A stretch of 32,000 nucleotides of DNA from Pseudoalteromonas tetraodonis. GTDB taxonomy: Bacteria; Pseudomonadota; Gammaproteobacteria; Enterobacterales; Alteromonadaceae. The stretch spans positions 2,880,001 to 2,912,000 of the forward strand of contig NZ_CP011041.1 of the NCBI RefSeq assembly GCF_002310835.1, written 5' to 3'. This document shows, one piece after another, positions 9,585 to 32,000 of the stretch (the stretch's first letter is position 1; each line of letters starts with the position of its first letter). Position numbers and translations under genes: made by a program. The notes beneath the pieces were generated by a model. That model was not told the DNA's origin and made no database searches. It saw only the letters and a program-made list of their open reading frames with translations.

Positions 9585-9587
9585 ATA

Positions 9588-10539: not shown

Positions 10540-10540
10540 G

Positions 10541-11484: not shown

Positions 11485-11488
11485 TTTA

Positions 11489-11839: not shown

Positions 11840-11889
11840 CACTGTTACCTCATTTGACTAACTAATTATCTATACACTTTTTTATGAAT

Positions 11890-12261: not shown

Positions 12262-12271
12262 AATTTTTCTC

Positions 12272-13671: not shown

Positions 13672-13680
13672 ATTGCCCTC

Positions 13681-14034
13681 CTAAACGACTTTTAAGACAC
13701 CGCGATACATTTGCATCTGACAGTGAAACTCATGCTCTCCCGGTGATAAGTTCAATAGGGTAATTTGAGTAATTTCATTTAATTTAAGCTGTTCGCTTAT
13801 ATCCAATGAAGGAATAAGCATTGTTTCAGCGCAGGGGGATTGATCTTTGCGCATAAACTTCAGAGTGACAGGTTGGCTAGCAGACACCTGAATTGAGGAT
13901 GGGGAATACACACCATCCCTCACTTCAATGAGTACTTCATTACCTTGAACGATTGTTTTATTGGGTTTATATAGCCAAAACCACCAAACAATCAGCGCGA
14001 TTAACATTAAGCCTAATAAGTTAATAACCATCAT
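13681..14034 (-). CDS. Membrane-anchored cupredoxin-like domain protein
   Basis: An N-terminal TM anchor (LLGLMLIALIVWWFWLY) is followed by a ~90-aa beta-rich domain ending in PGEHEFHCQMQMYRGVLKVV. This is the H...C..M..M pattern of small cupredoxin-like proteins found next to copper ATPases. Confidence 0.7.
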   Translation of the reverse strand: MMVINLLGLMLIALIVWWFWLYKPNKTIVQGNEVLIEVRDGVYSPSSIQVSASQPVTLKFMRKDQSPCAETMLIPSLDISEQLKLNEITQITLLNLSPGEHEFHCQMQMYRGVLKVV

Positions 14035-17103: not shown

Positions 17104-17526
17104 TTAGCCAATAATTGGTGGACGATAAAGTAAGAGATGGATACCAGATTTTGGTAGGGGTATACGCTGTAGAATTAGCTCAGAATGAATATTGCAAATA
17201 CCTTCCTCTTGCGCTTGCACAAGATAGGCATTTAAATGAAAGCTTGTACAAAAACCGCCTTCACAACAAACACAATCACCAGCTTTACATTTTTCACAGT
17301 CTTCATCACCATGACGGTTTTTAGAATCTTGCGAATTTTCAGTGTGATAGTGACTATTGTCATTCATTGATTGATGATGCATATTTTTGCTTGGTTGTAT
17401 AATATGCGTGTCGGAAGATCCATTTTGATGTTCTTCACAATTCATTGGTTTAGCAATAGCAAAGCCATGCTGCGTAAGCAACAGAGTAATTACCACTATT
17501 TTAAACCACTTGAAAAGTCCAAACAT
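17104..17526 (-). CDS. CzcI-like paralog: secreted or anchored His-rich, Cys-cluster protein
   Basis: The 140-aa protein has a signal or anchor (IVVITLLLTQHGFA) and a His-rich stretch (NMHHQSMNDNSHYHTEN...RHGDED). Its Cys cluster is CEKCKAGDCVCCEGGFCTSFHLNAYL, and its C-terminal tail is LLYRPPIIG. The Cys cluster, H-L and RPP tail are the same layout as the ORF at 694-1065. Confidence 0.5.
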   Translation of the reverse strand: MFGLFKWFKIVVITLLLTQHGFAIAKPMNCEEHQNGSSDTHIIQPSKNMHHQSMNDNSHYHTENSQDSKNRHGDEDCEKCKAGDCVCCEGGFCTSFHLNAYLVQAQEEGICNIHSELILQRIPLPKSGIHLLLYRPPIIG

Positions 17527-18178: not shown

Positions 18179-19039
18179 TCAGAGCCAGAACTTGATACCT
18201 GCAACAAAAGCAGTATCACGAGTACTTTGCCCATTTAACTTCGCAAAGTCGGCTGTATTACCAAATTTATTTGTCCACTCAACGCCAACATAGGGAGCAA
18301 ACTGGCGGGTAAACTCATAACGAACCCGAAAACCAATAGCACTGCTAGACAAGCCACTACCAAGGTTATTTTGGACGTCATCCTTACCGTAAAGCGTCAA
18401 CTCTGCTCGTGGTTGAACAATTAACTTTTGAGTAAGTAATAGCTCATACTCAGCTTCGATCGAAAATGCACTATTACCTTGCTCTCCTAAATACGCAGTC
18501 ATATCAATTTCAAACCAGTAGGGGGCTAGACCTTGTAAACCAAAAGCTAGCCATTTGCGGTTTTCACCTTCGTTATTGTAATCAAGTCGAATACCGACTT
18601 GTGTATCCCAATAAGCAGATATTGCGTGGCCCCATAGAAAATCTGTTTGGTTCTCCTCTAAATTACCTTCGCTAAAATCTCCTTCAGTTTTGATGACTAA
18701 TCTATCAAAAGTAGTGCCATACCATGCCTGAAAGTCAAAAACACCTGCGTTTGTTTGCTCATTATATTCAAGACGATCCCCTAGTAGCGCGTAAAATGAA
18801 TGCTCATCTGCCAAAGTCAGTCGTTTGTCGCTACTGAGTGCATAAGGACCTTCAGTCAAAGTTGTACCTGCTGCATAAGCATGGGGGTCTCTAGCATCTT
18901 TAGGTGCATCTCCACCTTGTGCTTGCATTTTAGAATCACCCATCTCAGTCATCTCATCTTTTGCAGATACAGATACACTTATAAGGGGCAAACCTATTAA
19001 TAATAGTCTTAACGTATTGGTTAGTATTAATTTTTTCAT
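18179..19039 (-). CDS. pcoB: Copper resistance outer membrane protein CopB/PcoB
   Basis: A signal peptide and an N-terminal Met/Asp region are followed by beta-barrel sequence typical of the family (LGDRLEYNEQ..., FDFQAWYGTTFDRLVIKTEGD, C-terminal F-W-L). An ATGA overlap links it to the pcoA stop. Confidence 0.88.
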   Translation of the reverse strand: MKKLILTNTLRLLLIGLPLISVSVSAKDEMTEMGDSKMQAQGGDAPKDARDPHAYAAGTTLTEGPYALSSDKRLTLADEHSFYALLGDRLEYNEQTNAGVFDFQAWYGTTFDRLVIKTEGDFSEGNLEENQTDFLWGHAISAYWDTQVGIRLDYNNEGENRKWLAFGLQGLAPYWFEIDMTAYLGEQGNSAFSIEAEYELLLTQKLIVQPRAELTLYGKDDVQNNLGSGLSSSAIGFRVRYEFTRQFAPYVGVEWTNKFGNTADFAKLNGQSTRDTAFVAGIKFWL

Positions 19040-20859
19040 GATACAACTACCTCTCTAAACATACCTGCATCCATGTGGAATAATAAATGGCAATGCCATG
19101 CCCAGCGACCTACGTCATGAGGTGTTGTTAAAAAACTAATTCTTTGCGCTGGTTGTACAGGGATAGTATGGCGACGAACCTGTACATCACCTTTTTCATT
19201 CTCCAAATCGCTCCACATACCATGCAGGTGCATGGGATGTGTCATCATTGTATCGTTTTGTAAAATAACTCTTAAACGTTGATTATGCTTCATGTGAACT
19301 GGCGTGCTTTTTCCAAATTCCAAGCCATCAAATGACCAGCTATAACGCTCCATGTTTCCAGTTAAATGTAATTCAATTTCAGCCTCTGGCTCTTGCTGGT
19401 TTGTAATTCCCTCAAGAGAATGTAAATCTGCAAGTGTTAAAACACGGCGTCCATTTTTACGTAAACCTATACCGGGATCATCAAGGTTTGTTCTAGGCAT
19501 ATCAACACGCATATCAACAGAAGCTCCATACTCTGTTTTTGCATGACGCACTTTAGTGCTAGCAACAGCTAATGGGTTTTTAGTCATTCCATGTTTACTA
19601 TGATCCATTGCCATCGCTCCATGACCCATTGCACTATGATCCATTTTATTAGAATTCATGCCCGACATGTCTGCCATACCTGCCATCGCGGAATGCTCAC
19701 CACCTTGGGCCATATTCCCCATCATATCTGTCATCGTTAACCATTCAACGGGATCTAGAGCAGGTACTGGTGCATCAATATTAGGTGCCATTGATAAAGT
19801 ACCTTTAGCATAACCTGAGCGATCCATGCTTTGTGCAAAAATCGTATATGCATCATTTTTTGGCTCGACAAGTACATCATAAGTTTCACCGGGACCAAAT
19901 CTAAATTCATCTACTGTCACAGGTTCAACATTTTGTCCATCAGCTTGTACAACTGTTAACTTCAGCTCAGGTATTCTTACATCAAAAAACGTATTGCTAG
20001 AACCGTTAATAAATCTAAGCCTAACCTTTTCGCCAGCTTTAAACATTCCACGCCAGTTTGTCAAAGGCGCACAACCATTCATTAAAAAAGTCATTGCAGA
20101 TGCTGATAAGTCTGCAAGATCTGTAGGGTTCATTCTCATTTTATTCCACATTTCCCGGCGTTGTAGCGCATTTGAAACGCTGCTATTTGAAATGTCATCA
20201 AAAAACTCTGGAACAGTAGGTTGATTAAAGTTAAATACATCGCTCTGTACTTTTAACTTGCGGAACAAATCCATTGGGTCATCATCAGTCCAATCAGACA
20301 ATTGGATAACATGCTCATTGTCAGCACTAATAATATCCTTTTCTCTTGGCTCAATAATTAATGCGCCGTACATACCTGTCATTTCTTGAAAGCCACTGTG
20401 TGAGTGATACCAATATGTGCCGCTTTGTTGCAGCTTAAATTTATAAACAAAGGTTTCACCCGGCATTATACCTTTAAAGCTAATACCCGGTACGCCATCC
20501 ATTTGATACGGAAGAATGATCCCATGCCAATGAATTGAACTCGGCACTGATAATTTATTAGTTACCCTGATAGTAACGTCATCACCTTCTCTGAGGCGCA
20601 AGGTAGGAGCTGGTATTGAGCCATTGATTGTTGTAGCCATTCTTACAACACCTGTGAAGTTTACGGGTGACTCATCTATCACCAGATCTATTATTTCTCC
20701 ACTTAGTTCGGGCACAGTACCTGTTATTGTTCCAGCCACTAAAGATGAAGCAGCATGAAGAATGCTTGGAAAAGCAGCTAATATACCGCCAGCAGCTAAA
20801 CCTTGTACAAAGCGTCTACGCGGTGTAGAAATTTGATGTAATGGATCTTTAATTCTCAT
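19036..20859 (-). CDS. pcoA: Copper resistance multicopper oxidase CopA/PcoA (Tat-exported)
   Basis: A twin-arginine signal is present (TPRRRFVQGLAAGG). MCO copper-site motifs are HWHG, YWYHSH, HPMHLHG and HCHLLFHMDAGM. A Met/His-rich insert is also present (MMGNMAQGGEHSAMAGMADMSGM...). Confidence 0.93.
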   Translation of the reverse strand: MRIKDPLHQISTPRRRFVQGLAAGGILAAFPSILHAASSLVAGTITGTVPELSGEIIDLVIDESPVNFTGVVRMATTINGSIPAPTLRLREGDDVTIRVTNKLSVPSSIHWHGIILPYQMDGVPGISFKGIMPGETFVYKFKLQQSGTYWYHSHSGFQEMTGMYGALIIEPREKDIISADNEHVIQLSDWTDDDPMDLFRKLKVQSDVFNFNQPTVPEFFDDISNSSVSNALQRREMWNKMRMNPTDLADLSASAMTFLMNGCAPLTNWRGMFKAGEKVRLRFINGSSNTFFDVRIPELKLTVVQADGQNVEPVTVDEFRFGPGETYDVLVEPKNDAYTIFAQSMDRSGYAKGTLSMAPNIDAPVPALDPVEWLTMTDMMGNMAQGGEHSAMAGMADMSGMNSNKMDHSAMGHGAMAMDHSKHGMTKNPLAVASTKVRHAKTEYGASVDMRVDMPRTNLDDPGIGLRKNGRRVLTLADLHSLEGITNQQEPEAEIELHLTGNMERYSWSFDGLEFGKSTPVHMKHNQRLRVILQNDTMMTHPMHLHGMWSDLENEKGDVQVRRHTIPVQPAQRISFLTTPHDVGRWAWHCHLLFHMDAGMFREVVVS

Positions 20860-20886
20860 TTTACTCTCCGAGGTTTGACCAATAAA

Positions 20887-21357
20887 TTAGTGTGACCAAT
20901 GAATGTGCTTAATTTTCCATTCACCGTTTTGCTTTTCGAGAACCATTGTTTCCATCCCTTGATAATCACGTTCTTCACCATTGTAAGTACCTTTAGTTTG
21001 ACTACGCGAGGCAGAGATAGCTGTATTTCCAAGTATCGTCACTTGATGTTCAAGTGTGTCGCTCTTCATCGCTGCTAAATACTTCATATCCGACAACATA
21101 TGATGATGAGCATATTCATCAGCGCTCCTTTCAACGCGGCCTCCCTCGAAAATGGTGACATCATCCGCTAACTGCGCTCTAGCCTGTTTTTGATTGCCAG
21201 TTTCAAGTGCTTGATGAAATGCCAAAACAACTTTTGCGGCTGGTGTATCTACACCTTTAAACAATCCTTTGTCTTTATTCTTATCACCATGAGCGTTTGC
21301 TGCGAAACTAAACGTCATTAATAAAACGAGTAGGATATTTATTGTTTTCATTTTCAT
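20887..21357 (-). CDS. Secreted NTF2/SnoaL-like (DUF4440-like) protein
   Basis: A signal peptide (LLMTFSFAANA/HGDKNKDKG) precedes a ~130-aa alpha+beta cone-like pattern ending in EKQNGEWKIKHIHWSH. The family assignment is by resemblance only. Confidence 0.5.
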   Translation of the reverse strand: MKMKTINILLVLLMTFSFAANAHGDKNKDKGLFKGVDTPAAKVVLAFHQALETGNQKQARAQLADDVTIFEGGRVERSADEYAHHHMLSDMKYLAAMKSDTLEHQVTILGNTAISASRSQTKGTYNGEERDYQGMETMVLEKQNGEWKIKHIHWSH

Positions 21358-21372
21358 TTTCTCTTTTAGGTT

Positions 21373-22269
21373 TTAATTTGCAGGGCCAACAACACTAGTA
21401 AGCCCAGCCGTTACAGATAAAATGGCAAAAGCTACTACCATTTCTATCGAGATAGATTTAGATAAAGCCTCTCTGCCTTGACTATTTTTAAGTTGTGGAA
21501 CGAGTATTAGTTTATGTTTAGCAGCAAGTGCCAAAATAGACACTACAAGGGCCAATTTAAACAACAGTGTTTGTCCGTAACTTGAGCTTATTAGTGCATC
21601 AAGACTTCCGACCAATTGAATCACGAGCCAGAGGCCTGCTACCAACAATAGGCTCAATGTAAAACTTGCTTGTTTGCCAAAGCTTTCCATCAGCAAATGA
21701 AGTTCTGCATAACTTAGCTGATGGCAAGCCTGTTTTAGTGGCAATAACGCCCCAAACCACCATGCCATAACGAGCACATGCAAAATAAGCAAGCCTTTTT
21801 CAATTGTGCCTAACTCAGAAATATGACCCAGTAACGTGAATGAGTATGCAAGGATTAATAAACTCAACATTAAAGCGCTTTGTTTTAAGTACGAGTTCAC
21901 AGCGAGTTTGAACCTTAAAGCTAAAGCGATTATTGCGGTAACTAGCCCAAGCGCTCGAAGCAAAGCTCCAGTGCCGACAGAGGAGTCCCACATAATAGCC
22001 AATATATCAGCGTCTATCGCCCCCTGAATTCCCTCTTCTGCCATTGCACCAGTACTGGCAAAGAACCAAGTAATATTAGCGATCAAAGCCATAACTATAT
22101 AAGTTCTTGTCCACGTTAAATTCGCTATTACAGCATTAGTATGAGATTCATTATTCTCAAATATTTGCCTGAAAAATGTATAACCAGCAATACAGGCAAA
22201 GCCGACGTAAAATACAATTTTTGACAGTACAATGACTGTATTCCAGATATACATTTCCATATCAATCAC
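21373..22269 (-). CDS. copD: Copper resistance inner membrane protein CopD/PcoD family
   Basis: The ~8-TM hydrophobic protein lies directly downstream of copC. The ORF-track start is a GTG, and ATG codons lie 3 and 5 codons downstream, so the start is uncertain by a few codons. Confidence 0.8.
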   Translation of the reverse strand: MIDMEMYIWNTVIVLSKIVFYVGFACIAGYTFFRQIFENNESHTNAVIANLTWTRTYIVMALIANITWFFASTGAMAEEGIQGAIDADILAIMWDSSVGTGALLRALGLVTAIIALALRFKLAVNSYLKQSALMLSLLILAYSFTLLGHISELGTIEKGLLILHVLVMAWWFGALLPLKQACHQLSYAELHLLMESFGKQASFTLSLLLVAGLWLVIQLVGSLDALISSSYGQTLLFKLALVVSILALAAKHKLILVPQLKNSQGREALSKSISIEMVVAFAILSVTAGLTSVVGPAN

Positions 22270-22279
22270 ACCGCCTATT

Positions 22280-22627
22280 TTAGTGAACCATAAAGCCGAA
22301 GCTATGTTTCATTTTATGACCATCGTTACCTAAGAAGGTTACATCCACAGCATAGTTTGCAGGAGCTAATTTAGGTAGTTTCCATGTAAATTTGCTAGTA
22401 GCGACTTTAGAAGGCTCGAATCCAAATTTAAATTCTTCGCCTTGTTTATTGGCCAATGAAACTTTTACAACCCGTACCTCTTTGGTGAACACCAAAGTTA
22501 ACTCTTCTGGAGGATTCATTAGCATTGCATTATCAGCAGGCACACTTTTTTCAAGATGCACATGCGCAAATACCGCACTACTAAAAACGACACTGATTAC
22601 GGTTAAAAATTTAATTAATGTTTTCAT
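22280..22627 (-). CDS. copC: Periplasmic copper-binding protein CopC/PcoC family
   Basis: A signal peptide ends in ...AVFA, followed by the mature N-terminus HVHLEKSVPADNAML. This is the His1-x-His Cu(II) site pattern of CopC/YobA domains. The protein is 115 aa and beta-rich. Confidence 0.85.
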   Translation of the reverse strand: MKTLIKFLTVISVVFSSAVFAHVHLEKSVPADNAMLMNPPEELTLVFTKEVRVVKVSLANKQGEEFKFGFEPSKVATSKFTWKLPKLAPANYAVDVTFLGNDGHKMKHSFGFMVH

Positions 22628-22651: not shown

Positions 22652-24484
22652 TTAACGACTAAATTTATCTTTGAAAATTTGATTACTTGGAATCCCAGCA
22701 TCTGTAATTATTTTTTCCACTTCACTCATCATTGCTTCTGGACCGCACAAGTAAAACTCAGCCAAAAGCAGTTCTGATTTTTGGTTCATATACGGCAGAA
22801 GTACTTTTTGAACATAGCCTGAGTGCCCTTGCCATTCTTCTGAAGGATTAGAAAGAGTAGGAATATAAGAGAAGTTTTTATGCTTCTCACTCAGTGACTT
22901 CAATTCATTATGGTATAGCAAGTCATCTTCAGTTCGCGCACCATAGATAAGAGTCAAACCACTTTTATCTTTATGCTTTTTCAACTGTTCAAAAATAATA
23001 GACCTCAGTGGTGCAAGTCCTGAACCCGCACCAATAAACACGCGACTAACTTTTTTATTTGAAGTGGCATAAAAATCAGAAAAAGGGCCTTTTGCAGTTA
23101 TCGTTTCACCTACTTGGAGTGAACCTAAATAACTTGAACCTATTCCTGCTTTAAAACCATTCTTTGCGGTCTGCCAACGGATATTAAACATTAACTCATC
23201 AGACTCCTCGTCAAAGTTAACTAATGAGTAGTGGCGAGTTACACCGTTATGAGAAAATTTTCCATGATAGTAGCTATCCCAGTATTTTTCATAGCACTCT
23301 GGCATATCATCTGGACGTAAGCTATTCATCCCTGCTGGCACATCAAATTGCATATATGCACCAGCTTTAAATGCCAACTGTTTGCCTGATTTCAGCTTAA
23401 ATTTCACTTCCTTGATAAAAGGAGTAATGAAATTAGTCGCAACCACAACTAGCTCATGATTTTCAATATTGCGATCAGTATTAACTTCAATCGAACTAAT
23501 TTCAGAGAACCTATGCTGACATCCAAGCCGATAACCTTCCTTAAGTTGCTCCTGAGATAAATGTTCCTGTTCAGATAGTGTGATAGGTAATTTAGTTGAA
23601 CTTAAGAACACGCATTTGCCACAAGTACCGCCACCACCGCAACCTGAAGGAAGGTATACATGTGAACTAGCTAGCCCTTCTAGTACAGTTGAGCGACCAA
23701 CTGCTGAGATGTCAGTAATAGTATTTTCATTGGAAAACGTCACTGCCACTTTTTGCCTGTTAGTGCCCCAACCTAGCTTCAGTAAACCACTTCGATACTG
23801 TTGTATCAGCCAAGTAACACCAGTAATTGAAAGGAATAGCGTTGCAAAAGCAAATGCAATGATCAACCAATGGTTAAATCCTCCAGAATTGCCATAGTCC
23901 ATAAAGTGAAGCTTCATCATCAGATCTTTCAATCTGAAATCATCATTGGCATGGCGAAGTACTTGACCTGTAATACTATCTAAATAAATAGTTGTATTGT
24001 TCTCATCCTCAACGGCAACTTGCCACATAGGATTTTGCTGCCTTACGTGATCAGAAAACGGAGGTTGAGATAACACTGGAGTAGTTAACTTACCCTGTCC
24101 TGAGTAGGAGTTTTTTGCCAAAGTTAGTACTTGTTCTTCAGACAAATTAAATGGCTTTCCTGTTACAGCATCAAATAGCTTTGAGTGGCGTTCTTGATAG
24201 CTATGCTGCCCCTTATCGAACACAAAATGATAGTAAGGCTGATGTAAAACCCATATAAGGTTTACTTCCTGCGGAGCATTACTAGTAATGTCTTTAATAG
24301 GGAATAGGTCAAAGCCTGTAATGCTACCTTCATGATGAGAATGAACTCTAAGTTCATTACCACTGGCTTTACTGTGATCCATCAAATTGAAGTAAAGGCC
24401 CGTTCCCAACCAAATAAGCAGTTGTAAACCAACAAATAAAGAAAGCCACTTGTGTATCGTTGTATTTAACTTAAATAGTCGCAT
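22652..24484 (-). CDS. Fusion protein: N-terminal PepSY-TM module (TM, periplasmic PepSY-like domain, TM) joined to an NqrF-like 2Fe-2S ferredoxin and an FAD/NAD(P)H oxidoreductase
   Basis: TM1 carries IHKWLSLFVGLQLLIW. A ~170-aa loop is followed by LHFMDYGNSGGFNHW and TM2. The ferredoxin motif is LPSGCGGGGTCGKC...RLGCQ, the FAD site is RHYS, the NAD(P)H site is GAGSGLAPLRS, and the C-terminal motif is YLCGPEAMM. All of these parallel NqrF. The likely start is ATG 24484 (TGATG overlap with the upstream stop); the ORF track starts one codon earlier at a TTG. Confidence 0.8.
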   Translation of the reverse strand: MRLFKLNTTIHKWLSLFVGLQLLIWLGTGLYFNLMDHSKASGNELRVHSHHEGSITGFDLFPIKDITSNAPQEVNLIWVLHQPYYHFVFDKGQHSYQERHSKLFDAVTGKPFNLSEEQVLTLAKNSYSGQGKLTTPVLSQPPFSDHVRQQNPMWQVAVEDENNTTIYLDSITGQVLRHANDDFRLKDLMMKLHFMDYGNSGGFNHWLIIAFAFATLFLSITGVTWLIQQYRSGLLKLGWGTNRQKVAVTFSNENTITDISAVGRSTVLEGLASSHVYLPSGCGGGGTCGKCVFLSSTKLPITLSEQEHLSQEQLKEGYRLGCQHRFSEISSIEVNTDRNIENHELVVVATNFITPFIKEVKFKLKSGKQLAFKAGAYMQFDVPAGMNSLRPDDMPECYEKYWDSYYHGKFSHNGVTRHYSLVNFDEESDELMFNIRWQTAKNGFKAGIGSSYLGSLQVGETITAKGPFSDFYATSNKKVSRVFIGAGSGLAPLRSIIFEQLKKHKDKSGLTLIYGARTEDDLLYHNELKSLSEKHKNFSYIPTLSNPSEEWQGHSGYVQKVLLPYMNQKSELLLAEFYLCGPEAMMSEVEKIITDAGIPSNQIFKDKFSR

Positions 24485-25191
24485 CAAATGACTCCCTTTT
24501 TATTTGGGGAAAGCACTCGGTAATAAGTCAATACTGCGCCAGTAATTGCTCCCATTAGACCTAGAGTTGCGACCAAGAACAAAAACCAGTTAGATACGTT
24601 TTCTCCATCATAGTAATCCATAATGTGGAACCGCCACATCCAATCAAACAATCGCCAGTAATCATGACGCTTGGCAACAAGTGATCCTGTTTGTTGACTT
24701 ATATAAAATGTCGGTGTGGAGAATTGCTCAAACGTCACTCTCCAAACAGGTAAATGCCTTGGGGACAACTCAGCAGGCAAGTTTGTCGCTGACTTAATCA
24801 ACCTTACGCTGTCGATTTGATGATTCAGCGCATAATGGTATTGTGCGATTTCTTTAGCCTTGATTTCATCTACAAGTGCCTGAACAGCTCCAGTTTTAGC
24901 ATCTATTGCTACTTTTCCATTTTCTCCATTAATAAAAGAATACAAAGGACGGCCCATACTTTGAGTAAGTGTAACTTGGCTAGCTTTAGGATAATCCGCA
25001 GCTAGCTTTACAATGGAGTAATCCATACTTGCTAAATCTATTTTGGCTTCCTCACTCTTAGCCAAGGTTTCGCCGTGTATATAGTGAATATCCATAGTCA
25101 CCATATACACGCCTGTAATAGACCAGAAGAGGAATTGTATTCCGACAAATGCCATTAGCCATTTGTGATATTTTCTAGCCGTGCTAAGCAT
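24484..25191 (-). CDS. PepSY-associated two-TM protein with a periplasmic PepSY-like domain
   Basis: TM1 carries YHKWLMAFVGIQFLFW. A ~150-aa loop is followed by RFHIMDYYDGENVSNW and TM2. This is the same architecture and the same two His-containing motifs as the N-terminal third of the downstream reductase. The start overlaps the cusA stop by 8 nt. Confidence 0.75.
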   Translation of the reverse strand: MLSTARKYHKWLMAFVGIQFLFWSITGVYMVTMDIHYIHGETLAKSEEAKIDLASMDYSIVKLAADYPKASQVTLTQSMGRPLYSFINGENGKVAIDAKTGAVQALVDEIKAKEIAQYHYALNHQIDSVRLIKSATNLPAELSPRHLPVWRVTFEQFSTPTFYISQQTGSLVAKRHDYWRLFDWMWRFHIMDYYDGENVSNWFLFLVATLGLMGAITGAVLTYYRVLSPNKKGVI

Positions 25192-28100
25192 TACTTTTTA
25201 GCTCCGCCTTAGAAAGCTCCTTGTTAAAGGCGTTTAATTCTGGCTTTTTAACGATTGAGTAAATTACTGGGAGCACAATAAGAGTGAGTAGCACAGCACT
25301 TGTCATTCCGCCTACCATAGGTGCAGCAATACGACTCATAATCTCCGAACCTGTTCCTGTACCATATAAAATGGGCATCAAGCCGATAATGATTGTTGCA
25401 ACTGTCATCATTACTGGACGAACTCGTAAGCCTGCACCGTGCAATAATGCATCTTGATATGCATCATCAGAGATAGGTTCAGCTCGCTCTTCAGCTTTTT
25501 CCTTAAGCTCAGCAAGTGCCTGATTGAGATAGACCAACATTATCACACCAATCTCAACCGCTACCCCAGCTAGAGCAATAAAGCCCACGCCAACAGCCAC
25601 AGAGAAGTTAAACCCTTCCAGATACATCAACCATAAGCCACCAATCATCGCCATCGGCAAGGTAACGATAATGATAGCCACCTCACTAAACGCTCTGAAG
25701 TTTAAGTAAAGTAGAATAACAATAATGGCGAGTGTTAAAGGCAATACATAGGTGAGCTTTTCTTTCGCTCTTTCCATATATTCGTATTGCCCAGCCCAAG
25801 TAATTGAATAACCTGCTGGTAGTTTTAGATTATTAGCCAAGTGTATTTTTGCACTTTCAACATAAGTACCTACGTCAACACCGTCTATATCGATAAACGT
25901 CCAGCCATTTAAACGAGCATTTTCACTCTTAATTCCCGGCGGACCGTTCTCAACTCGAATATCTGCGACATCACCTAGTGCAATGCGTTGACCACTTGGT
26001 GTTACAACAGGTAATCGTGATAGCTGCTCAGGAGAGTCTCGATAGTCTTGCGGATAGCGTAAGTTAACAGGGTAACGCTCTTGACCTTCTACCGTTTGGG
26101 TAACGTTCATACCACCAATAGCTGTAGAAACCACTTGTTGAACATCTTCGATGTTTAACCCAAAGCGACTTGCCTTATCGCGTGAAATATCAACCTTGAT
26201 ATATCGTCCACCTGCAACTCGCTCTGAGTAAACTGATGCTGTGCCTGTAACTTCGGGTAAAATTTGCTCTATTTGTTGGCCGATTTCCTGAATCACATCA
26301 AGCTCTGGTCCGGCGACTTTAATACCCACAGGCGTTTTTATGCCTGTTGCTAACATGTCGATTCGGGTCTTGATTGGCATAACCCAAGCATTCGTTAAGC
26401 CCGGAAACTTAACCAATTTATCAAACTCAGCTTTTAACGATTCAGTAGTCACACCCTCTCGCCACTGCTCTCGTGGCTTCAATTGAATAAAGGTTTCAAT
26501 CATGGTTAAAGGTGCAGGATCGGTTGCAGTTTCAGCTCTTCCTACTTTACCAAATACAGTTTCAACTTCTGGCACAGTGCGAATAAGCTTGTCTGTTTGC
26601 TGCAATAACTCCCTTGCTTTACCAATTGAAATACCGGGATAGGTAGTAGGCATATACATGAGATCGCCTTCATCCAATGGCGGAATGAATTCACTACCAA
26701 TTTTATCGACAGGCCAAAAGCCAACGATAGTCACTAATATTGCTGCTACTATTGTCGATTTTGGAAACTTCATGACTTGCTTTAAAACAGGCATGTAGAT
26801 AGCAATCAATAATCGGTTTAACGGGTTTTTCTTTTCAGAAACAACTTTGCCTCGAATAAAGTAGCCCATCAAAACAGGCACCAATGTGATCGCCAAACCT
26901 GCTGATGCCGCCATTGCATAGGTTTTTGTATAGGCGAGCGGAGAGAACATTCTTCCTTCTTGCGCTTCCAAGATAAATACAGGTAAGAATGAGACTGTAA
27001 TGATCAGTAAGCTAAAAAATAGTGCAGGGCCTACTTCACTCGCAGCCTTAGCAACAATTTGCCAGCGATTTTCATCTGTTAGTGGTGTTTTCTCCATATG
27101 CTTGTGCATATTTTCAATCATCACTATTGCACCATCAGTCATCGCACCAATCGCAATAGCGATACCGCCTAAAGACATAATGTTGGCATTGATGCCTTGC
27201 ATATACATGATAATGAACGACACCAAGATACCTAATGGCAGAGTAACAACTGCCACAATAGATGAGCGAAGATGAAATAGGAAAGCCACACAGACAATAG
27301 CAACGACTGCAAGCTCCTCTAGCAACTTGCTCCAAAGATTATCAACAGCACGATCTATTAACTTCGATCTGTCATAAACAGGGACAATCTCCACCCCCTC
27401 TGGTAGAGAAGATTTAAGCGATTCAAGTTTTTCTTTTACCCCGTTTATGGTTTGTTGAGCGTTTTCACCAAAGCGCATAACGACAACACCACCAACAACT
27501 TCGCCTTCACCATTAAGCTCTGCGATACCACGGCGCATTTGAGGCCCTAAATTAACGGTAGCAACATCACCAATACGCAATGGCGTGCCTTGTTCGTTAA
27601 TACCAAGTGGGATTTTCTCTATATCACTAACTGATTGAATATACCCCGTTGCGGTAACCATATATTCAGCTTCAGCCATTTCCACAACGGATGCGCCAGT
27701 TTCTTTGTTCCCTTTTTGTAAGGCTATTTGTATTAAACTTAGAGGAATATCGTAAGCTCTCAATTTATCAGGATCTACTTGCACTTGATACTGCTTAACC
27801 ATACCACCAACGGCGGCAACTTCGGACACGCCCGGAACAGTTTGTAGTTCATACTTTAAGAACCAGTCTTGAATGCTTCTTAATTGGCTTAGATCATGGT
27901 TTCCAGACTTATCTGTTAAAGCGTAAATGTATACCCAACCCACACCTGTTGCATCAGGTCCTAATTGAGGTTTTGCCGAATCAGGCAGGCTTGATGCTAC
28001 TTGGCTTAAGTATTCAAGTACTCTGCTTCTAGCCCAATACAAATCAGTATCGTCATCAAAAATAATGTAGACGTAGGAATCACCAAAAAATGAGTAACCA

Positions 28101-28348
28101 CGAACAGTTTGCGCCCCCGGCACTGATAACATCGCTGTAGTAAGAGGAAATGTCACTTGATCCTGCACTACTTGTGGTGCCTGTCCCGGATAGCTCGTCT
28201 TAATTATCACCTGCACATCAGAAAGATCGGGGAGTGCATCTACTGGTGTTTTTTGTAATGAATACAAACCACCAAACGCGATAATTAAGGTAATCAACAA
28301 AACAAAGAAACGATTGCCGATAGACCATCTAATAATTGATTCAATCAT
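25184..28348 (-). CDS. cusA: Cu(I)/Ag(I) efflux RND pump CusA
   Basis: The 1054-aa protein has the 12-TM RND architecture. Its TM4 motif is AIAIGAMTDGAIVMIEN (monovalent HME class). Its periplasmic Met-containing segment is PLDEGDLMYMPTTYPGISI, as in CusA. Confidence 0.92.
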   Translation of the reverse strand: MIESIIRWSIGNRFFVLLITLIIAFGGLYSLQKTPVDALPDLSDVQVIIKTSYPGQAPQVVQDQVTFPLTTAMLSVPGAQTVRGYSFFGDSYVYIIFDDDTDLYWARSRVLEYLSQVASSLPDSAKPQLGPDATGVGWVYIYALTDKSGNHDLSQLRSIQDWFLKYELQTVPGVSEVAAVGGMVKQYQVQVDPDKLRAYDIPLSLIQIALQKGNKETGASVVEMAEAEYMVTATGYIQSVSDIEKIPLGINEQGTPLRIGDVATVNLGPQMRRGIAELNGEGEVVGGVVVMRFGENAQQTINGVKEKLESLKSSLPEGVEIVPVYDRSKLIDRAVDNLWSKLLEELAVVAIVCVAFLFHLRSSIVAVVTLPLGILVSFIIMYMQGINANIMSLGGIAIAIGAMTDGAIVMIENMHKHMEKTPLTDENRWQIVAKAASEVGPALFFSLLIITVSFLPVFILEAQEGRMFSPLAYTKTYAMAASAGLAITLVPVLMGYFIRGKVVSEKKNPLNRLLIAIYMPVLKQVMKFPKSTIVAAILVTIVGFWPVDKIGSEFIPPLDEGDLMYMPTTYPGISIGKARELLQQTDKLIRTVPEVETVFGKVGRAETATDPAPLTMIETFIQLKPREQWREGVTTESLKAEFDKLVKFPGLTNAWVMPIKTRIDMLATGIKTPVGIKVAGPELDVIQEIGQQIEQILPEVTGTASVYSERVAGGRYIKVDISRDKASRFGLNIEDVQQVVSTAIGGMNVTQTVEGQERYPVNLRYPQDYRDSPEQLSRLPVVTPSGQRIALGDVADIRVENGPPGIKSENARLNGWTFIDIDGVDVGTYVESAKIHLANNLKLPAGYSITWAGQYEYMERAKEKLTYVLPLTLAIIVILLYLNFRAFSEVAIIIVTLPMAMIGGLWLMYLEGFNFSVAVGVGFIALAGVAVEIGVIMLVYLNQALAELKEKAEERAEPISDDAYQDALLHGAGLRVRPVMMTVATIIIGLMPILYGTGTGSEIMSRIAAPMVGGMTSAVLLTLIVLPVIYSIVKKPELNAFNKELSKAELKSNA

Positions 28349-28362: not shown

Positions 28363-30105
28363 TTAATGATTAGAATGATCAACAGCAGCTTTATTTTCCT
28401 TGCCGTGTTGTTCATCTGATTCAAGAGAAATGTCAGTGATAACTAAGTCATCTCTAACCTCAAAAGTGAAAGTGACATTATCACCGACATTGAAATCAAC
28501 CATTTCTATATTGTCCGCGACGATAAAATCCATCGTCGCAGCAGGTCTATCCCATTTCTCTATTGGGCCTCTGCTAATATTTAGAATCCGTGTATCAATA
28601 TCAATCGCATTAATCAAACCAGATACTGTTGCTGATGATACTTCAGGCTCACTCATGATATGAATTCCAGTAATTTCATATCCACCGTCTTCGGTTTTGC
28701 TCACTTCAAAGTGCAAAGATTGACCTGACTTTAATGAGTCAATATCGACTTTTTCAGCCACAGTAAAATCCATAACCATTTCAGGCCAATCCCAAGCTTC
28801 AGCAGGGCCATGTGAAATATTAACCATGCGGTGCCCTGCCATAACACTATTAACATCCCCTTGCATCCAAACAGAGTTAGGCACTTCATCATGAGTCATT
28901 CGTTTAAAGTCAGAGCTTTTACTTGATTCAGAATCAATCAAGAATTGGGCAGATGTCACCACAACGTCATCTTCATTTAAGCCGTCTAATATTTCGATGC
29001 TGTCGATATCAACCCGGCCAATAGTCACTTCAATAGATTTAAATTGCCCATCACCTAACGCAAGTACTACTCTGTCCTGTTTACCTGTTCTAATAACGGC
29101 TTCTTTAGGCACGAGGATGGTGCTATCAGCTTGATTAGCGTGAATAGAGACTTGTGCAAACATATTTGGTTTTAATTGATAGTCTGTGTTATCAAATTTC
29201 AATCTCACTCGGAGTGTGCGTGTTTTACTGTTCAATGTTGGATAAACATAATCAACGACACCAGCCCAGTCCTCACCGGGTAAATAATCCAGTGTCATTG
29301 ATACAGGAAGTCCTTTTTTAATTAAGGCTGCGTCACGTTCAAACACTTCTGCTTCAACCCAAACTTGATCTAGCTGGCCAATGCTTAATAAGGTGTTTCC
29401 CGGCTTTACATAAAAACCTTCTCTAACCTTCAAACCATCGACAACACCTGCTTGTGGTGAATAAAAGGTAATTGCTTGCTGAACCTTTCGTGTCTTTTCT
29501 AGCTTTTGAACAAAGTCTGCTGAAAGCTGTAACGCTTTTAGGCGATCTTTGGCTGCTGAAATTAAAGAACTATTGTTGCGCTTTAACGCTATTAACAGCT
29601 CTTCCTGAGCATTAACTAACTGAGGAGAATATAGTGTATAAAGAGGCTGCCCTTTCTCTACAGGGTTACCTGCTGCTTTGATGTAAAGTTTATCAATCCA
29701 GCCATCAACCCGTGGGTGGATATGAATTAGCTTATCTTCATCATATTGAACATAACCTACCGTTGAGATTTCAGTATGCATATTTTTCAGTTCAACAGGT
29801 GCAGTGCGAACCCCAAGGTTATTCACTACATGAGGCGCAATTTTTACTGCTCCGGGGCCAAAGTCATCACCAGATGATCCTTCCTCATACACTGGAATTA
29901 GATCCATCCCCATAGGCGACTTACCGGGCTTGTCCCGGCGGTAATTAGAATCCATCGGTGCAACCCAATACAGAGGCTTTTTTTCTCCTGATGTTGCTTC
30001 ATTACTATTACTGTTTGAGCCAGTACCTTGATATAAACTCAATGCTCCAGCACCAAGTGCTGCCCCAATGATGATGGCAATAATTGTTTTTGTATTCGTT
30101 GACAT
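28363..30105 (-). CDS. cusB: CusB-type periplasmic adaptor fused to two C-terminal CusF-like domains
   Basis: The N-terminus has an anchor and YWVAPMDSNYRRDKPGKSPMGMDLIP. An MFP core covers aa ~90-395. Two ~70-aa CusF-like repeats follow: ...NISHGPAEAWDWPEMVMDF... (aa ~412-484) and ...NISRGPIEKWDRPAATMDF... (aa ~491-561). The tail is His-rich. Confidence 0.88.
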   Translation of the reverse strand: MSTNTKTIIAIIIGAALGAGALSLYQGTGSNSNSNEATSGEKKPLYWVAPMDSNYRRDKPGKSPMGMDLIPVYEEGSSGDDFGPGAVKIAPHVVNNLGVRTAPVELKNMHTEISTVGYVQYDEDKLIHIHPRVDGWIDKLYIKAAGNPVEKGQPLYTLYSPQLVNAQEELLIALKRNNSSLISAAKDRLKALQLSADFVQKLEKTRKVQQAITFYSPQAGVVDGLKVREGFYVKPGNTLLSIGQLDQVWVEAEVFERDAALIKKGLPVSMTLDYLPGEDWAGVVDYVYPTLNSKTRTLRVRLKFDNTDYQLKPNMFAQVSIHANQADSTILVPKEAVIRTGKQDRVVLALGDGQFKSIEVTIGRVDIDSIEILDGLNEDDVVVTSAQFLIDSESSKSSDFKRMTHDEVPNSVWMQGDVNSVMAGHRMVNISHGPAEAWDWPEMVMDFTVAEKVDIDSLKSGQSLHFEVSKTEDGGYEITGIHIMSEPEVSSATVSGLINAIDIDTRILNISRGPIEKWDRPAATMDFIVADNIEMVDFNVGDNVTFTFEVRDDLVITDISLESDEQHGKENKAAVDHSNH

Positions 30106-31532
30106 TATTTTTCTCCAAATTGCTGACTGGATAAGTGCTGATTAGTTTTGTGTGAAGTTTGCATCGACTTATGTTCAGCATTTGAGTTAGATTGAGAATG
30201 CGCAAAGAAATAGTTGATACGAGCAACTGTTTTAAGTGCGTCAACATCAATTCTTAAAGCTGATATTCTGGTATTTAATTCGGCAATTCTTGCTCGAACA
30301 ACTTCGGCAAAATCGCCATCATCATTTGTGTAGGCTGTCAATGACGCTTCTGCTTGGTCATGAGTTTGTTTAAGGAGTTGTTCTTGATAGATAGATTGTC
30401 TATCTGATAAGCGTTTAAGCTGTCTTAGTTCTTTTTCTAAAACACTGATCATTTGCTTTGTCAGTAATAGTTTCTCGGTTTTAATAGTCTCTGAATCTGC
30501 AATAGAAGCTGCAACTTGCTTATCTTGTCTGTTCTCGGTAAACAAGGGTAAATCAAACGTTACCCCAACAGAAAATAAATCAGCTCGGCTATCACCAGAG
30601 GGCATATTGTCGCGATAGGCATAACTAGCATTAACACCCCATTGCGGCTCATATTGCTGTTTGGCTAACTCAATTCCTTTTTCTGAAGCTTTGCGTTTTA
30701 TATCAATCGCAAGTATGGCTGGGTGATTCGAAAGCTCCTGAGCCAATAGATTTCTTGAGTAATTAGATGCTTTTAGGACTGTTGGATTATTCAATTGAAT
30801 CGAAGGCAATTCTTTTGAGACGCTAAACTCTAATGGTTGCGCGTCAAAGTTGAATGATTCATTCAAACGATCCGCATCGTAAATATGAAGCCACTCATTG
30901 AGACGAGCGATTGTCGTTTCTAGTTTCTGCTTTTGCGAAGTTAATCTGTCATCTAACTGCACGATTTCCAACTGAGCACGAATAACATCTTGCTGTCTAG
31001 TTTTACCAACAACGTTTGAATAGCTAGCTTTAGCCACTTCCGCCATCTGCTCAAAGAGAGACCAATCATCTTCAATCAATTTAATAGTTTGTTGGGCTAA
31101 GTAAGCATCTAACCAAAGTTGTGACACTTGGCTTTTCAACTTAGCTTTACGATCCTCTCGTAACAGTGGAAATTTCGTGGACTCAATTTGTAACTGGTCT
31201 TTCTTGATCTCTAGACTGTCGCCTCTCGGAAACATTTGAGAGACGCCAACCTTTAGCTGAGTCATTCCTTCCTGATCTAAATCCCAAGTATCTGTTGGTA
31301 AATTCATTATCCCTAGCGATACTTTCGGATCAGGCAAAGTACCTGAAGCAATACTTCTATTTTCAACTGCACTTTGTTTCAATCGGCTACCATGAAGCCA
31401 AGGATCATTTTGCTGAGCTAAGGTGATAGCTTGTTCAAGCGACACTACTTTCTCAGCTTGAGCTGAGAATACAGATAAGCCGAGTATTAATGCAGTTGAA
31501 AGTGAAGTAAGGTTTGAAGAGTTCAATTTCAT
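30105..31532 (-). CDS. cusC: Outer membrane efflux protein CusC (TolC/OMF family)
   Basis: The 475-aa protein has a signal peptide (…LGLSVFSAQA/EK) and OMF two-repeat sequence. TAATG one-nt overlaps occur at both ends, with copG and with cusB. Confidence 0.85.
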   Translation of the reverse strand: MKLNSSNLTSLSTALILGLSVFSAQAEKVVSLEQAITLAQQNDPWLHGSRLKQSAVENRSIASGTLPDPKVSLGIMNLPTDTWDLDQEGMTQLKVGVSQMFPRGDSLEIKKDQLQIESTKFPLLREDRKAKLKSQVSQLWLDAYLAQQTIKLIEDDWSLFEQMAEVAKASYSNVVGKTRQQDVIRAQLEIVQLDDRLTSQKQKLETTIARLNEWLHIYDADRLNESFNFDAQPLEFSVSKELPSIQLNNPTVLKASNYSRNLLAQELSNHPAILAIDIKRKASEKGIELAKQQYEPQWGVNASYAYRDNMPSGDSRADLFSVGVTFDLPLFTENRQDKQVAASIADSETIKTEKLLLTKQMISVLEKELRQLKRLSDRQSIYQEQLLKQTHDQAEASLTAYTNDDGDFAEVVRARIAELNTRISALRIDVDALKTVARINYFFAHSQSNSNAEHKSMQTSHKTNQHLSSQQFGEK

Positions 31533-32000
31533 TAGAATTGCTCCTCGTATGTCTTAACTTTTGCATAGACTTTGCTCGTTCCATCTTTAAATAGAATTAA
31601 CACGTTGTATGGCATAAAGCGGTCATCGACTTCCATACCGGGAGAGCCAACTGGCATTGCTGGAACTGAAAGCCCAATCGCATTGGGATGTTCTTCTGAT
31701 AAGAACTGCTGAATAAATTTAGCAGGTATATGACCTTCAAAGGCAAATCCATTTCTACTCACTGCCGTGTGGCATGAACGGTAATTAGGTTTGATACCAT
31801 ACTTAGTTTTGATGTTGCCGATGTTTCGGAAATCTTTGGAATGCGCAACGATCCCTTTGTCTTCAATATGAGTTATCCATTTTTTACAACACCCACAAGT
31901 AGGGGTTTTATAAACGATTAACTCCAAAGGTGTTACGTCGTTATTGTGTGCATGGTTATGTTCGTTGGCGTTTGCAAACGCAGGTGAAAGCAGCATTACT
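31532..32000 (-). CDS. copG: DUF411 (CopG-family) periplasmic metal-binding protein, 5'-partial at the window edge
   Basis: The motif YKTPTCGCCKKWITHIE is the CxCC motif of DUF411/CopG, followed by ...SVPAMPVGSPGME. The frame remains open to nt 32000, and the visible N-terminus (LLSPAFANA) looks like the end of a signal peptide, so the true start lies outside the window. Confidence 0.8.
   Translation of the reverse strand, partial: VMLLSPAFANANEHNHAHNNDVTPLELIVYKTPTCGCCKKWITHIEDKGIVAHSKDFRNIGNIKTKYGIKPNYRSCHTAVSRNGFAFEGHIPAKFIQQFLSEEHPNAIGLSVPAMPVGSPGMEVDDRFMPYNVLILFKDGTSKVYAKVKTYEEQF

Follow-up and report, generated by a model that had tools for sequence, protein, structure and literature searches.

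We analyzed two adjacent genes of Pseudoalteromonas tetraodonis, here called PepA and PepB, which lie between the pump gene cusA and copC in a tightly packed copper operon (NCBI RefSeq assembly GCF_002310835.1, contig NZ_CP011041.1, positions 2,880,001 to 2,912,000 of the forward strand). This whole stretch of 32,000 nucleotides is referred to as the window, and all positions are counted within it; the names PepA and PepB are labels coined in this analysis. A preliminary description of the same DNA had proposed that the two proteins form a candidate transmembrane metal reductase driven by NAD(P)H. The genes and the parts of PepB are the following (TM, transmembrane helix; aa, amino acids):

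24484..25191, minus strand: PepA, a half-size PepSY_TM protein of 235 aa (open reading frame list; Pfam)
22652..24484, minus strand: PepB, a half-size PepSY_TM module followed by an NqrF-like 2Fe-2S/FAD/NAD(P)H module, 610 aa
23750..24484, minus strand: membrane module of PepB (aa 1-245), made of TM1, a PepSY-like domain, an amphipathic helix and TM2 (alignment, model)
23450..23737, minus strand: 2Fe-2S ferredoxin domain of PepB (aa ~250-345; Pfam Fer2)
23612-23641, minus strand: PepB Cys282, Cys288 and Cys291
23519-23521, minus strand: PepB Cys322
23060..23449, minus strand: FAD-binding domain of PepB (aa ~346-475; Pfam FAD_binding_6), with the RHYS motif at 23225-23236
22652..23059, minus strand: NAD(P)H-binding domain of PepB (aa ~476-610) and stop codon (Pfam NAD_binding_1, E = 7e-24)
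23009-23032, minus strand: GAGSGLAP motif of PepB

The stop codon of cusA and the ATG start of PepA overlap by 8 nt in ATGCTTAG, the TGA stop of PepA and the ATG of PepB form the sequence TGATG, and 24 nt separate the TAA of PepB from the ATG of copC; the three junctions first reported for this DNA were all reproduced. The open reading frame listed for PepB (22652-24487, minus strand) opens with a TTG at 24487 and has an in-frame ATG at 24484. Because the PepA stop and this ATG share TGATG, PepB likely starts at the ATG at 24484 (610 aa) and not at the TTG at 24487. Promoter and terminator scans gave no signal above chance within the tightly packed minus-strand unit.

PepA is organized as TM1, a periplasmic PepSY-like domain of ~170 aa, an amphipathic helix and TM2, and its predicted model has helices at residues 2-32, 177-190 and 202-227. 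Each of the two proteins has two hydrophobic segments (about 10-32 and 202-227 in PepA, about 12-34 and 206-231 in PepB) on either side of a loop of ~170 residues, and their membrane modules are homologous, with about 26% identity. The order TM, PepSY-like loop, TM in both proteins was found as previously described, and translation confirmed the motifs quoted for them, namely YHKWLMAF/IHKWLSLF, FHIMDY/LHFMDY, CGGGGTCGKC...C, RHYS and GAGSGLAPLRS. A total of 194 PepA homologues of ~235-255 aa were found, and PepB-type proteins form a full-length family of ~610 aa.

Profile searches in Pfam and NCBIfam returned the domain order that had been predicted for PepB. The protein scored above the Pfam threshold for Fer2, FAD_binding_6 and NAD_binding_1, and residues 248-609 matched the NCBIfam model nqrF (TIGR01941) with E = 4e-71 and 240 bits, so that the 2Fe-2S/FAD/NADH order of NqrF is present with intact cofactor motifs. 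V. cholerae NqrF is the best PDB sequence match (E = 3e-57, about 30% identity) and the best match by fold too, the FAD domains aligning in Foldseek with a TM-score of 0.83-0.84 on the target. In NqrF, as proposed for PepB, the ferredoxin domain passes electrons to a membrane partner, and the single N-terminal TM helix of that protein is replaced in PepB by the PepSY_TM half-module. That PepB could be a true NqrF was considered and rejected, since 240 bits is below the equivalog cut-off of 295 bits, the neighbours are cusA and copC with no nqrA-E nearby, and the N-terminal part is a PepSY_TM half-module of 245 aa.

The two membrane modules divide the PepSY_TM profile (PF03929) between them. 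PepA and PepB each reach 27.1 bits, with a cut-off of 28.8 bits, and the N-terminal half of the profile is matched by PepB and the C-terminal half by PepA. We scanned one genome per species (185,579 species), which gave 282 relatives, and analyzed the 80 closest of these matches, with the best 79 loci retrieved; the named organisms in these loci are all Gammaproteobacteria from marine or aquatic habitats, most of them Alteromonadales sensu lato. A PepA orthologue stands directly upstream of a PepB orthologue in essentially all 79 genome loci. When the PepA and PepB membrane modules were joined end to end and used as the search query, natural single-chain forms were retrieved. One of these, the 482-aa protein P0241, is a fused core that is 46% identical to the joined query over 98% of its length, and about 25 further fused cores of 465-530 aa were found (P0241-P0264 range). 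Other relatives extend the fused core with Fer2 (P0254, P0268, P0271, P0272, P0274 and P0280) or with Fer2 and FNR (P0297, 836 aa, and P0307-P0350, ~800-846 aa). In these fused relatives PepSY_TM gives a single match over the whole model, of 78.4 bits in P0241 (profile positions 2-292 of 295), 65.4 bits in P0274 and 47.6 bits in P0297, and P0297 passes PepSY_TM, Fer2, FAD_binding_6 and NAD_binding_1 together. Since the fused relatives fill one whole model, the Pfam domain corresponds to PepA plus PepB, and the pair in the window is its split version.

With PepA as query, HMMER was run exhaustively over 1.84 billion cluster representatives and gave 1183 matches at E <= 1e-3 and 610 at E <= 1e-10. 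The best 150 of these matches include:

97 half-size proteins
27 fused cores
12 fused proteins of 536-700 aa, the Fer2 Cys motif being present in 11/12
8 fully fused proteins of ~800-846 aa, with the Fer2 Cys motif in 8/8, RxYS in 7/8 and GxGxGxxP in 6/8

Variants without FNR retain Fer2, and the family thus offers a graded series of electron-input modules. The existence of Fer2-only variants and of variants with no cytoplasmic module implies that other cytoplasmic donors can feed the membrane core. PepA and PepB are most likely one enzyme in two pieces.

The predicted structure agrees with this. PepA and PepB were modelled end to end, the join mimicking the short cytoplasmic loop of the natural fusions, and those fusions served as anchor rows of the model alignment, which covered both halves. 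The AlphaFold model of the full 845 residues had a mean predicted local distance difference test score (pLDDT) of 87.2 and a predicted TM-score (pTM) of 0.63; that of the 480-residue membrane core had a pLDDT of 91.8 and a pTM of 0.88 and shows four long helices and two alpha/beta domains. At a pTM of 0.88 the two halves appear confidently placed relative to each other, and the model predicts a four-TM bundle with two periplasmic PepSY domains in which the bundle comes from two polypeptides. When the core was compared by fold with the PDB, FoxB (7abw_B) alone reached E < 0.001 (E = 2.3e-6, probability 1.00), and the PepSY-domain proteins YpeB and YpmB came next; a fold search with the full 845-aa model was dominated by NqrF/FNR matches, and a profile search with a further alignment (A7) by NqrF. 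The heterodimer that had been suggested for the two proteins is therefore favoured by the natural fusions such as P0241, by the joined-core model and by FoxB being the sole significant PDB match, as far as relatives and predicted models can tell. The periplasmic domains of PepA and PepB are about twice the size of those of FoxB, and the modelled core is best described as a distant branch of the FoxB fold and not as a close FoxB relative.

The positive charge at the ends of the membrane modules points to a cytoplasmic location of all four termini, the counts of K+R versus D+E being 3/0, 2/0, 3/0 and 4/0. Single-chain PepA-PepB fusions require an in-out-in-out-in path. Three independent lines, namely the charge distribution, the PepA-PepB fusions with their short connecting loop and the joining of PepA to CusA at its cytoplasmic C-terminus, described below, place the flavin/Fe-S module in the cytoplasm, the side to which it had been assigned at the outset.

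FoxB, FpvG, FsrB and HiuB are PepSY_TM di-heme ferric-siderophore reductases (FoxB, 7ABW) that resemble the predicted core of the pair in their four-helix bundle, their two PepSY-type domains on the periplasmic side, the conserved His at either membrane face and the mid-membrane Trp residues. According to the FoxB preprint (10.1101/2021.01.28.428567), two b hemes lie at the membrane edges with His ligands from TM helices, all four helices contributing; H198 on TM3a is a ligand of the cytoplasmic heme, and a His tetrad near the periplasmic heme bound Zn in the crystal. Each FoxB heme is axially chelated by two conserved His (PMC13038864). PepSY_TM di-heme periplasmic metal reductases are established for iron (10.1101/2021.01.28.428567; PMC13038864). 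Unlike FoxB, the pair splits the bundle over two genes (2 TM + 2 TM), carries a fused NqrF-type NAD(P)H/FAD/2Fe-2S input module, none being described for FoxB in the accessible part of the preprint, and stands in a cus/cop context and not in siderophore uptake. A PepSY_TM protein has also been linked to copper: CrpH of Bordetella pertussis is encoded in a copper-regulated operon and was proposed, not shown, in 2026 to be a periplasmic copper reductase (PMC13038864). CrpH needs conserved His for its function, its expression is switched on when copper is scarce, and it works alongside a TonB-dependent copper importer for the benefit of heme-copper oxidases (PMC13038864). Unlike CrpH, the pair lies in a resistance island, adjacent or fused to the exporter CusA.

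Conservation of the membrane core was measured in an alignment (A5) of 149 sequences, and the relevant histidines are:

25165..25167, minus strand: PepA His9 (HKW), cytoplasmic end of TM1, conserved in 81/81, proposed ligand of a cytoplasmic heme
24625..24627, minus strand: PepA His189 (FHIMDY), periplasmic interface before TM2, 88/89, proposed ligand of a periplasmic heme
24452..24454, minus strand: PepB His11 (HKW), cytoplasmic end of TM1, 91/91, proposed ligand of the cytoplasmic heme
23906..23908, minus strand: PepB His193 (LHFMDY), periplasmic interface, 91/91, proposed ligand of the periplasmic heme
25075-25077, minus strand: PepA His39, periplasmic side, 100% conserved
24664-24666, minus strand: PepA His176, periplasmic side, 99% conserved
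24664..25077, minus strand: span holding PepA His39 and His176
24374-24376, minus strand: PepB His37, periplasmic side, 85% conserved
23951-23953, minus strand: PepB His178, periplasmic side, 99% conserved

The four histidines singled out from the start, His9 and His189 of PepA and His11 and His193 of PepB, are thus conserved at 99-100%, two at each membrane face, and their assignment as heme ligands is by position. PepA His9 occupies a position analogous to that of the cytoplasmic-side His of FoxB (10.1101/2021.01.28.428567). TM1 of both halves holds further conserved Gln, Trp and Gly residues (Q19, W23 and G27 in PepA; Q21, W25 and G29 in PepB), which recall the inter-heme Trp pair of FoxB. 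His39 and His176 of PepA with His37 and His178 of PepB might, speculatively and by analogy, form a metal site beside the outer heme. The cofactor sites of PepB are conserved too: Cys282, Cys288 and Cys291 in 69/69 sequences, RxYS (R417, Y419, S420) in 62/62, CGP in 62/63 and the C-terminal Phe608 in 62/62, a C-terminal aromatic residue stacking on FAD in such enzymes; the fourth Cys (Cys322) aligns with the NqrF segment 'rlaCQ'.

These conserved residues bear on whether the proteins act in redox chemistry at all. PepSY domains were first described as regulating peptidases, and the Foldseek matches to YpeB and YpmB would suit sensors, inhibitors or assembly factors of the pump, with the NqrF-like module a relic or occupied with some cytoplasmic job. 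However, cofactor motifs and membrane His that are invariant at 30-40% family identity are unexpected of a relic, and the FNR-less variants keep Fer2 in the graded series of electron-input modules, so we consider a non-redox role highly improbable.

We propose instead that PepA and PepB together are a split PepSY_TM transmembrane cytochrome of the FoxB kind with its own NqrF-type dehydrogenase, most likely reducing periplasmic Cu(II) for CusA, and we give this reading a probability of roughly 0.55. Electrons would pass from cytoplasmic NAD(P)H to FAD and from FAD to the 2Fe-2S cluster, both cofactor sites being on the C-terminal part of PepB. The cluster would reduce a heme b near the cytoplasmic face, held by PepA His9 and PepB His11, from which electrons would cross the membrane past the mid-membrane Trp23 of PepA and Trp25 of PepB to a second heme b, with PepA His189 and PepB His193 as its ligands at the periplasmic face, and would end on an acceptor bound under the two PepSY-like domains. 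The enzyme would work beside, and probably on, the CusA trimer, and its substrate would most likely be periplasmic Cu(II), free or bound to CopC, which would be reduced to Cu(I). Electrons run downhill from NADH (about -320 mV) to Cu(II)/Cu(I) and would have to run uphill in the opposite direction, which argues for a reductase.

The same logic, from NAD(P)H through a flavin and two bis-His hemes to extracytoplasmic Fe(III), Cu(II) or O2, is known from the NOX/FRE/STEAP enzymes, and yeast Fre1 reduces Cu(II) ahead of transport. These enzymes use a 6-TM ferric reductase domain, compared with the 4-TM PepSY_TM of the pair, and the pair is an analogue and not a homologue. In the Pfam scan PepB had no match to the six-TM ferric reductase domain PF01794, and NAD_binding_6 matched weakly (PepB, E = 8.7e-4; P0297, 25 bits); PepA/PepB is accordingly analogous in working to the NOX/FRE reductases without being a member of the family. 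Unlike them, the pair adds a 2Fe-2S step, and reduction would feed an exporter and not an importer. Cu(II) is the most economical acceptor because the pump takes Cu(I) alone, CopC types hold Cu(II), sea water is oxic, and the functional precedents, FoxB, the proposed role of CrpH and, by analogy, Fre1, are metal reductases.

The surrounding operon is consistent with this proposal. The other genes of the unit, in the order of transcription DUF411/CopG-like, cusC, cusB, cusA, PepA, PepB, copC, copD, DUF4440, multicopper oxidase and copB, are:

28363..31996, minus strand: upstream part of the transcription unit (cusB, cusC, DUF411)
31532-31996, minus strand: DUF411/CopG-like gene (Pfam)
30105-31532, minus strand: cusC, coding for an OEP protein
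28363-30105, minus strand: cusB, 580 aa, with an N-terminal heavy-metal-binding domain (HMBD) and two C-terminal CusF domains
25184..28348, minus strand: cusA, a Cu(I)/Ag(I)-type RND pump (TIGR00914, 1276 bits)
18179..22627, minus strand: downstream part of the unit (copC to copB)
22280-22627, minus strand: copC
21373-22269, minus strand: copD
20887-21357, minus strand: periplasmic DUF4440/SnoaL-like gene
19036-20859, minus strand: multicopper oxidase of the CopA/PcoA type
18179-19039, minus strand: copB

A MerR regulator and a P1B ATPase follow beyond copB. A 250-aa segment of the window CusA matches residues 481-730 of the E. coli CusA chain with E = 1e-91, and the Met triad of E. coli CusA (M573/M623/M672) is kept. 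Cu(I) is the sole form handled by the Met-triad CusA and by CusF domains, so that copper from an oxic periplasm could be pumped out once reduced. CusB bears CusF-type domains in place of a separate cusF gene.

The pair is found with copper genes well beyond the window. Well-flanked loci, those that extend 5 kb or more upstream of the pair and 6 kb or more downstream, number 73; 65 of them (89%) hold a copper-homeostasis gene within 10 kb, a Cus-type cusA being present in 43 and copC, copD or an oxidase in 36. At least six different arrangements tie the pair to copper genes. It is found between cusCBA and copCD; after cusCBA with a second protein that has Fer2 and no FNR; as a short pair between a D-lactate dehydrogenase and a TonB-dependent receptor whose sole PDB relatives are the copper importer OprC; in Rheinheimera and Arsukibacterium in the order GntR, TonB-dependent receptor, pair, cusS/cusR, oxidase, copB, copC, copD; in a widespread metagenomic form where an oxidase and CopB stand on one flank and the opposite flank holds CopD, a CopC-DUF4440 fusion, CusF, another oxidase and an outer-membrane factor; in Colwellia with cytochrome c genes downstream; and in Ferrimonas as the fused form beside convergent cusA-cusB. 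Chance adjacency was rejected, since the two genes are found together again and again, in several independent arrangements and in fused form.

Within these loci the closest association is with the pump. cusA lies directly upstream of the pair in 44/81 loci. copC lies directly downstream in 27/81, each of which has cusA upstream, and a further 17 loci have cusA and no adjacent copC; the tightest partner of the pair is CusA rather than CopC. This weighs on another possible client of the same enzyme, in which Cu(II) on CopC would be reduced for uptake by CopD and cuproenzyme supply, a bacterial analogue of Fre1/Ctr1. The 24-nt spacing between PepB and copC, the 27 loci with copC next to the pair, and the CopC/CopD or CopC-DUF4440/CopD genes that flank it in other arrangements all speak for such a route, as do CrpH, the other copper-linked PepSY_TM protein, which serves the copper supply of oxidases, and the variants beside an OprC-like TonB-dependent copper importer. 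But every locus with copC downstream also has cusA upstream, the fusions examined join PepA to CusA and never to CopC or CopD, and the operon, with its oxidase, CopB and Cus, is of the resistance and not the acquisition type. Supply through CopC and CopD is consequently regarded as unlikely, though the strongest of the alternatives to Cu(II) reduction for CusA.

The CusA::PepA fusion deserves particular attention. In six genomes CusA and PepA form a single open reading frame of ~1280-1294 aa:

locus L025, Thalassomonas
locus L026, Alteromonas salexigens
locus L064, uncultured Alteromonas
locus L065, gammaproteobacterial metagenome-assembled genome
locus L068, Alteromonas aquimaris
locus L090, Thalassotalea piscium, complete genome

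Linkers differ in sequence among the six, the same CusA/PepA junction occurs in the metagenomic fragments P0259 and P0265, and in Pfam the L026 protein matches ACR_tran, PepSY_TM and PepSY. The fusion is topologically sound, and the window, where cusA and PepA overlap by 8 nt, shows this junction in its unfused state. As judged from sequence, the pair is adjacent to cusA in 44/81 loci and fused to CusA in six genomes, and the window CusA keeps the Met triad, as would be expected of an accessory of CusCBA. Such a fusion is 'Rosetta stone' evidence, and indicates that the reductase works on the pump. A stronger version of the proposal, in which PepA-PepB would act as a dedicated NAD(P)H:Cu(II) oxidoreductase and form a physical subunit of CusCBA, one per CusA protomer, making Cu(I) at the pump entrance, is put forward tentatively, with odds somewhat below even.

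The fusion would fit equally well a local protection of the Met-rich copper path. Electrons could be supplied to periplasmic proteins, keeping the Met/Cys ligands of CusA, CusB, CusF and CopG reduced or re-reducing CopG or another redox protein, as MsrQ feeds MsrP; the first gene of the operon codes for a DUF411/CopG-like protein that has a Cys motif, and cytochrome c genes follow the pair in Colwellia. Against this, no conserved methionine-sulfoxide-reductase or thiol-oxidoreductase partner stands beside the pair, the characterized PepSY_TM enzymes reduce metal chelates and not proteins, and the conserved periplasmic His cluster suggests a metal site. We judge protein reduction to be unlikely, and slightly more so than supply through CopC and CopD.

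Several relatives have TonB-dependent receptors as neighbours, and one of these receptor families matches OprC alone in the PDB. TonB-dependent receptors would also suit an ordinary PepSY_TM ferric or ferric-siderophore reductase, carried along in a copper island on account of the iron starvation or Fe-S damage that copper stress brings about. All biochemically characterized PepSY_TM members are iron reductases, some sources label relatives 'iron-regulated membrane protein', and some relatives lie outside copper contexts. Yet no siderophore, Fur-type or Feo genes were seen beside the pair in the loci examined, on which ground a siderophore reductase was rejected; copper genes accompany 89% of the well-flanked loci, the OprC-like receptor points to copper, and a fusion to CusA makes no sense for iron uptake. 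An iron reductase is for these reasons improbable. The neighbourhood survey suggested in the preliminary description has revealed a strong copper link and no visible iron link.

Reduction of Cu(II) for CusA remains the preferred reading, and a number of points weigh against it. Superposition of the core on FoxB is poor (TM-score 0.34 on the query and 0.42 on the target, root-mean-square deviation 13.8 A), and FoxB did not come up when profiles of the membrane module were run against the sequences of the PDB. PepA and PepB singly fall just under the Pfam PepSY_TM threshold, and the placement of Fer2/FNR relative to the membrane core is not confident in the full model (pTM 0.63). Heme binding is proposed by analogy. 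About 24 of the loci are copies of one horizontally spread island, so that the loci are not independent. Relatives in Shewanella sp. AS1 and S. canadensis, at loci L060, L069 and L078, and the fused P0241 and P0297 have no copper neighbours, and the family as a whole is consequently not exclusively dedicated to copper. Finally, production of Cu(I) in the periplasm opposes the multicopper oxidase of the same operon and the two would run as a futile cycle if Cu(I) were not channelled to the pump. With a Cu(I) oxidase encoded in the operon, the model works only if Cu(I) is handed to the CusF domains of CusB or to the Met triad of CusA and not released. Redox control of the multicopper oxidase had been mentioned early on as an alternative, and nothing in our analysis favours it. 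Of the NAD(P)H-driven transmembrane metal reductase as first proposed, the architecture, the topology and the copper link have held, and the heme and the Cu(II) substrate would follow by analogy; the natural fusions and the tie to CusA strengthen the proposal.

Other cupric reductases differ from the proposed enzyme. CcoG, a 4Fe-4S protein, and E. coli Ndh-2, a respiratory flavoprotein, are both credited with reducing Cu(II) to Cu(I) and are membrane-associated like the proposed pair, and neither is a transmembrane heme relay to the periplasm. We know of no link between CcoG or Ndh-2 and an RND pump. CcoG reduces copper after its import into the cytoplasm, on the assembly route of cbb3 oxidase (PMC13038864). 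A 2021 paper counted 1077 PepSY-like genes with PF00175 and suggested that cytosolic NADH powers electron transfer across the membrane in their products (PMC8238504). Its clusters are defined by ApbE and flavinylated partners (DUF2271, DUF4198) and are iron-linked, and its accessible text mentions neither a split architecture nor a Fer2 step nor a connection with cus/cop. No ApbE or FMN-binding gene was found among the window open reading frames scanned against Pfam. Our literature search found no split PepSY_TM pair, no NqrF-type module in cus/cop operons and no CusA fusions, in a coverage that leaves out most subscription journals and so gives no proof of absence; a paper on copper islands of Alteromonas (PMC8478169) does not mention the pair genes. 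It had been stated at first that no bacterial cupric reductase of such architecture had been characterized. The split pair and its cus link do appear unreported in the sources covered, but PepSY-NAD fusions (PMC8238504) and CrpH (PMC13038864) predate this work, and the papers of 2021 and 2026 make that claim of novelty somewhat overstated.

Several observations concern other genes of the operon. The DUF411 protein that heads the cus operon has a CGCCKKW motif. CopG has reportedly been proposed to interconvert Cu(I) and Cu(II); in that case the operon could contain, in addition to the oxidase, two copper proteins with redox activity. The name CopG is given to the DUF411 family in a published gene table (PMC12341060). 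A DUF4440/SnoaL-like secreted protein follows copD in 26 loci, and in the widespread metagenomic form CopC and DUF4440 are fused in one protein of 264 aa (L087, 9885-10679), which suggests that the DUF4440 protein is a functional partner of CopC. We know of no described role of DUF4440/SnoaL-like proteins in copper handling. At 17104-17526 on the minus strand the window encodes a protein of 140 aa that has a hydrophobic segment at its N-terminus, a body rich in His and Cys that includes CEKCKAGDCVCCEGGFC, and no Pfam match. Its homologues occur in 44 related loci, usually just upstream of DUF411/cusC and sometimes twice per island, and it may be an uncharacterized periplasmic copper-binding or regulatory protein.

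The cus-pepAB-cop island (L001-L024, L030) is carried by Pseudoalteromonas, Glaciecola, Parashewanella, Opacimonas, Thalassotalea, Colwellia, Planctobacterium and Aestuariibacter with 86-100% protein identity across genera, a sign of recent horizontal transfer; among copies that are otherwise near-identical, it is consistently CopC (about 79-83%) that has diverged most. A search of PLSDB gave a single match of 135 bp and did not show the pair to be plasmid-borne. In that match the first 135 nt of PepA (25057-25191) are 99.3% identical to positions 118507-118641 of the Salinimonas iocasae plasmid NZ_CP039853.1 (348 kb), after which the match ends; it could be a recombination scar or a truncated copy beside a plasmid cusA. 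In Alteromonas and Aestuariibacter (L044-L049, L053, L052, L056, L058, L062) the short pair lies between a membrane D-lactate dehydrogenase and the OprC-like receptor, and these loci also hold a histidine kinase and a response regulator. The D-lactate dehydrogenase could be an alternative electron source for the short pair, or merely a neighbour. A GntR/UTRA regulator and a TonB-dependent receptor of ~890-930 aa precede or accompany the pair in L070-L077 and L087-L090, from Rheinheimera, Arsukibacterium, Thalassotalea piscium and a widespread metagenomic lineage; in the PDB this receptor has generic plug-domain matches alone.

The remainder of the window is a general metal-resistance island, with a second metal-resistance block at 1-13700. 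This block starts with a truncated CDF gene followed by an OEP/MFP/RND (czc-like) system at 1138-6522, and continues with a full CDF gene at 6621-7550, a transglutaminase-like gene, and DUF305 and MauE-like genes at 10018-11272. No open reading frame of at least 110 aa is listed between 8695 and 10018, where G+C is lowest (0.354-0.356). Directly downstream of the P1B ATPase are genes for an ICMT-like methyltransferase, a DUF2933 protein and a cupredoxin, and the same merR-copA-cupredoxin-hypothetical-ICMT cluster has been described in Alteromonas (PMC8478169).

CusCBA, CusF and CusB are restricted to Cu(I) and Ag(I), and aerobic bacteria, above all marine ones, meet copper mainly as Cu(II). 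To our knowledge there is no established answer to how Cu(II) becomes a Cus substrate in an oxidizing periplasm. The pair is a concrete candidate answer, a self-powered reductase encoded in the operon of the pump and fused to the pump in six genomes. If this is true, a redox step would be added to the model of RND metal efflux, in which copper would be reduced, captured and expelled and the substrate would be made on the spot by an attached enzyme. PepA-PepB would then be the first bacterial enzyme with the functional layout of Fre/NOX/STEAP, that is, 'reduce before transport', and the PepSY_TM proteins would be extended from iron acquisition to copper resistance. The series of variants, with no cytoplasmic module, with Fer2 only, with Fer2 and FNR, split or fused, provides natural constructs for the dissection of the electron path.

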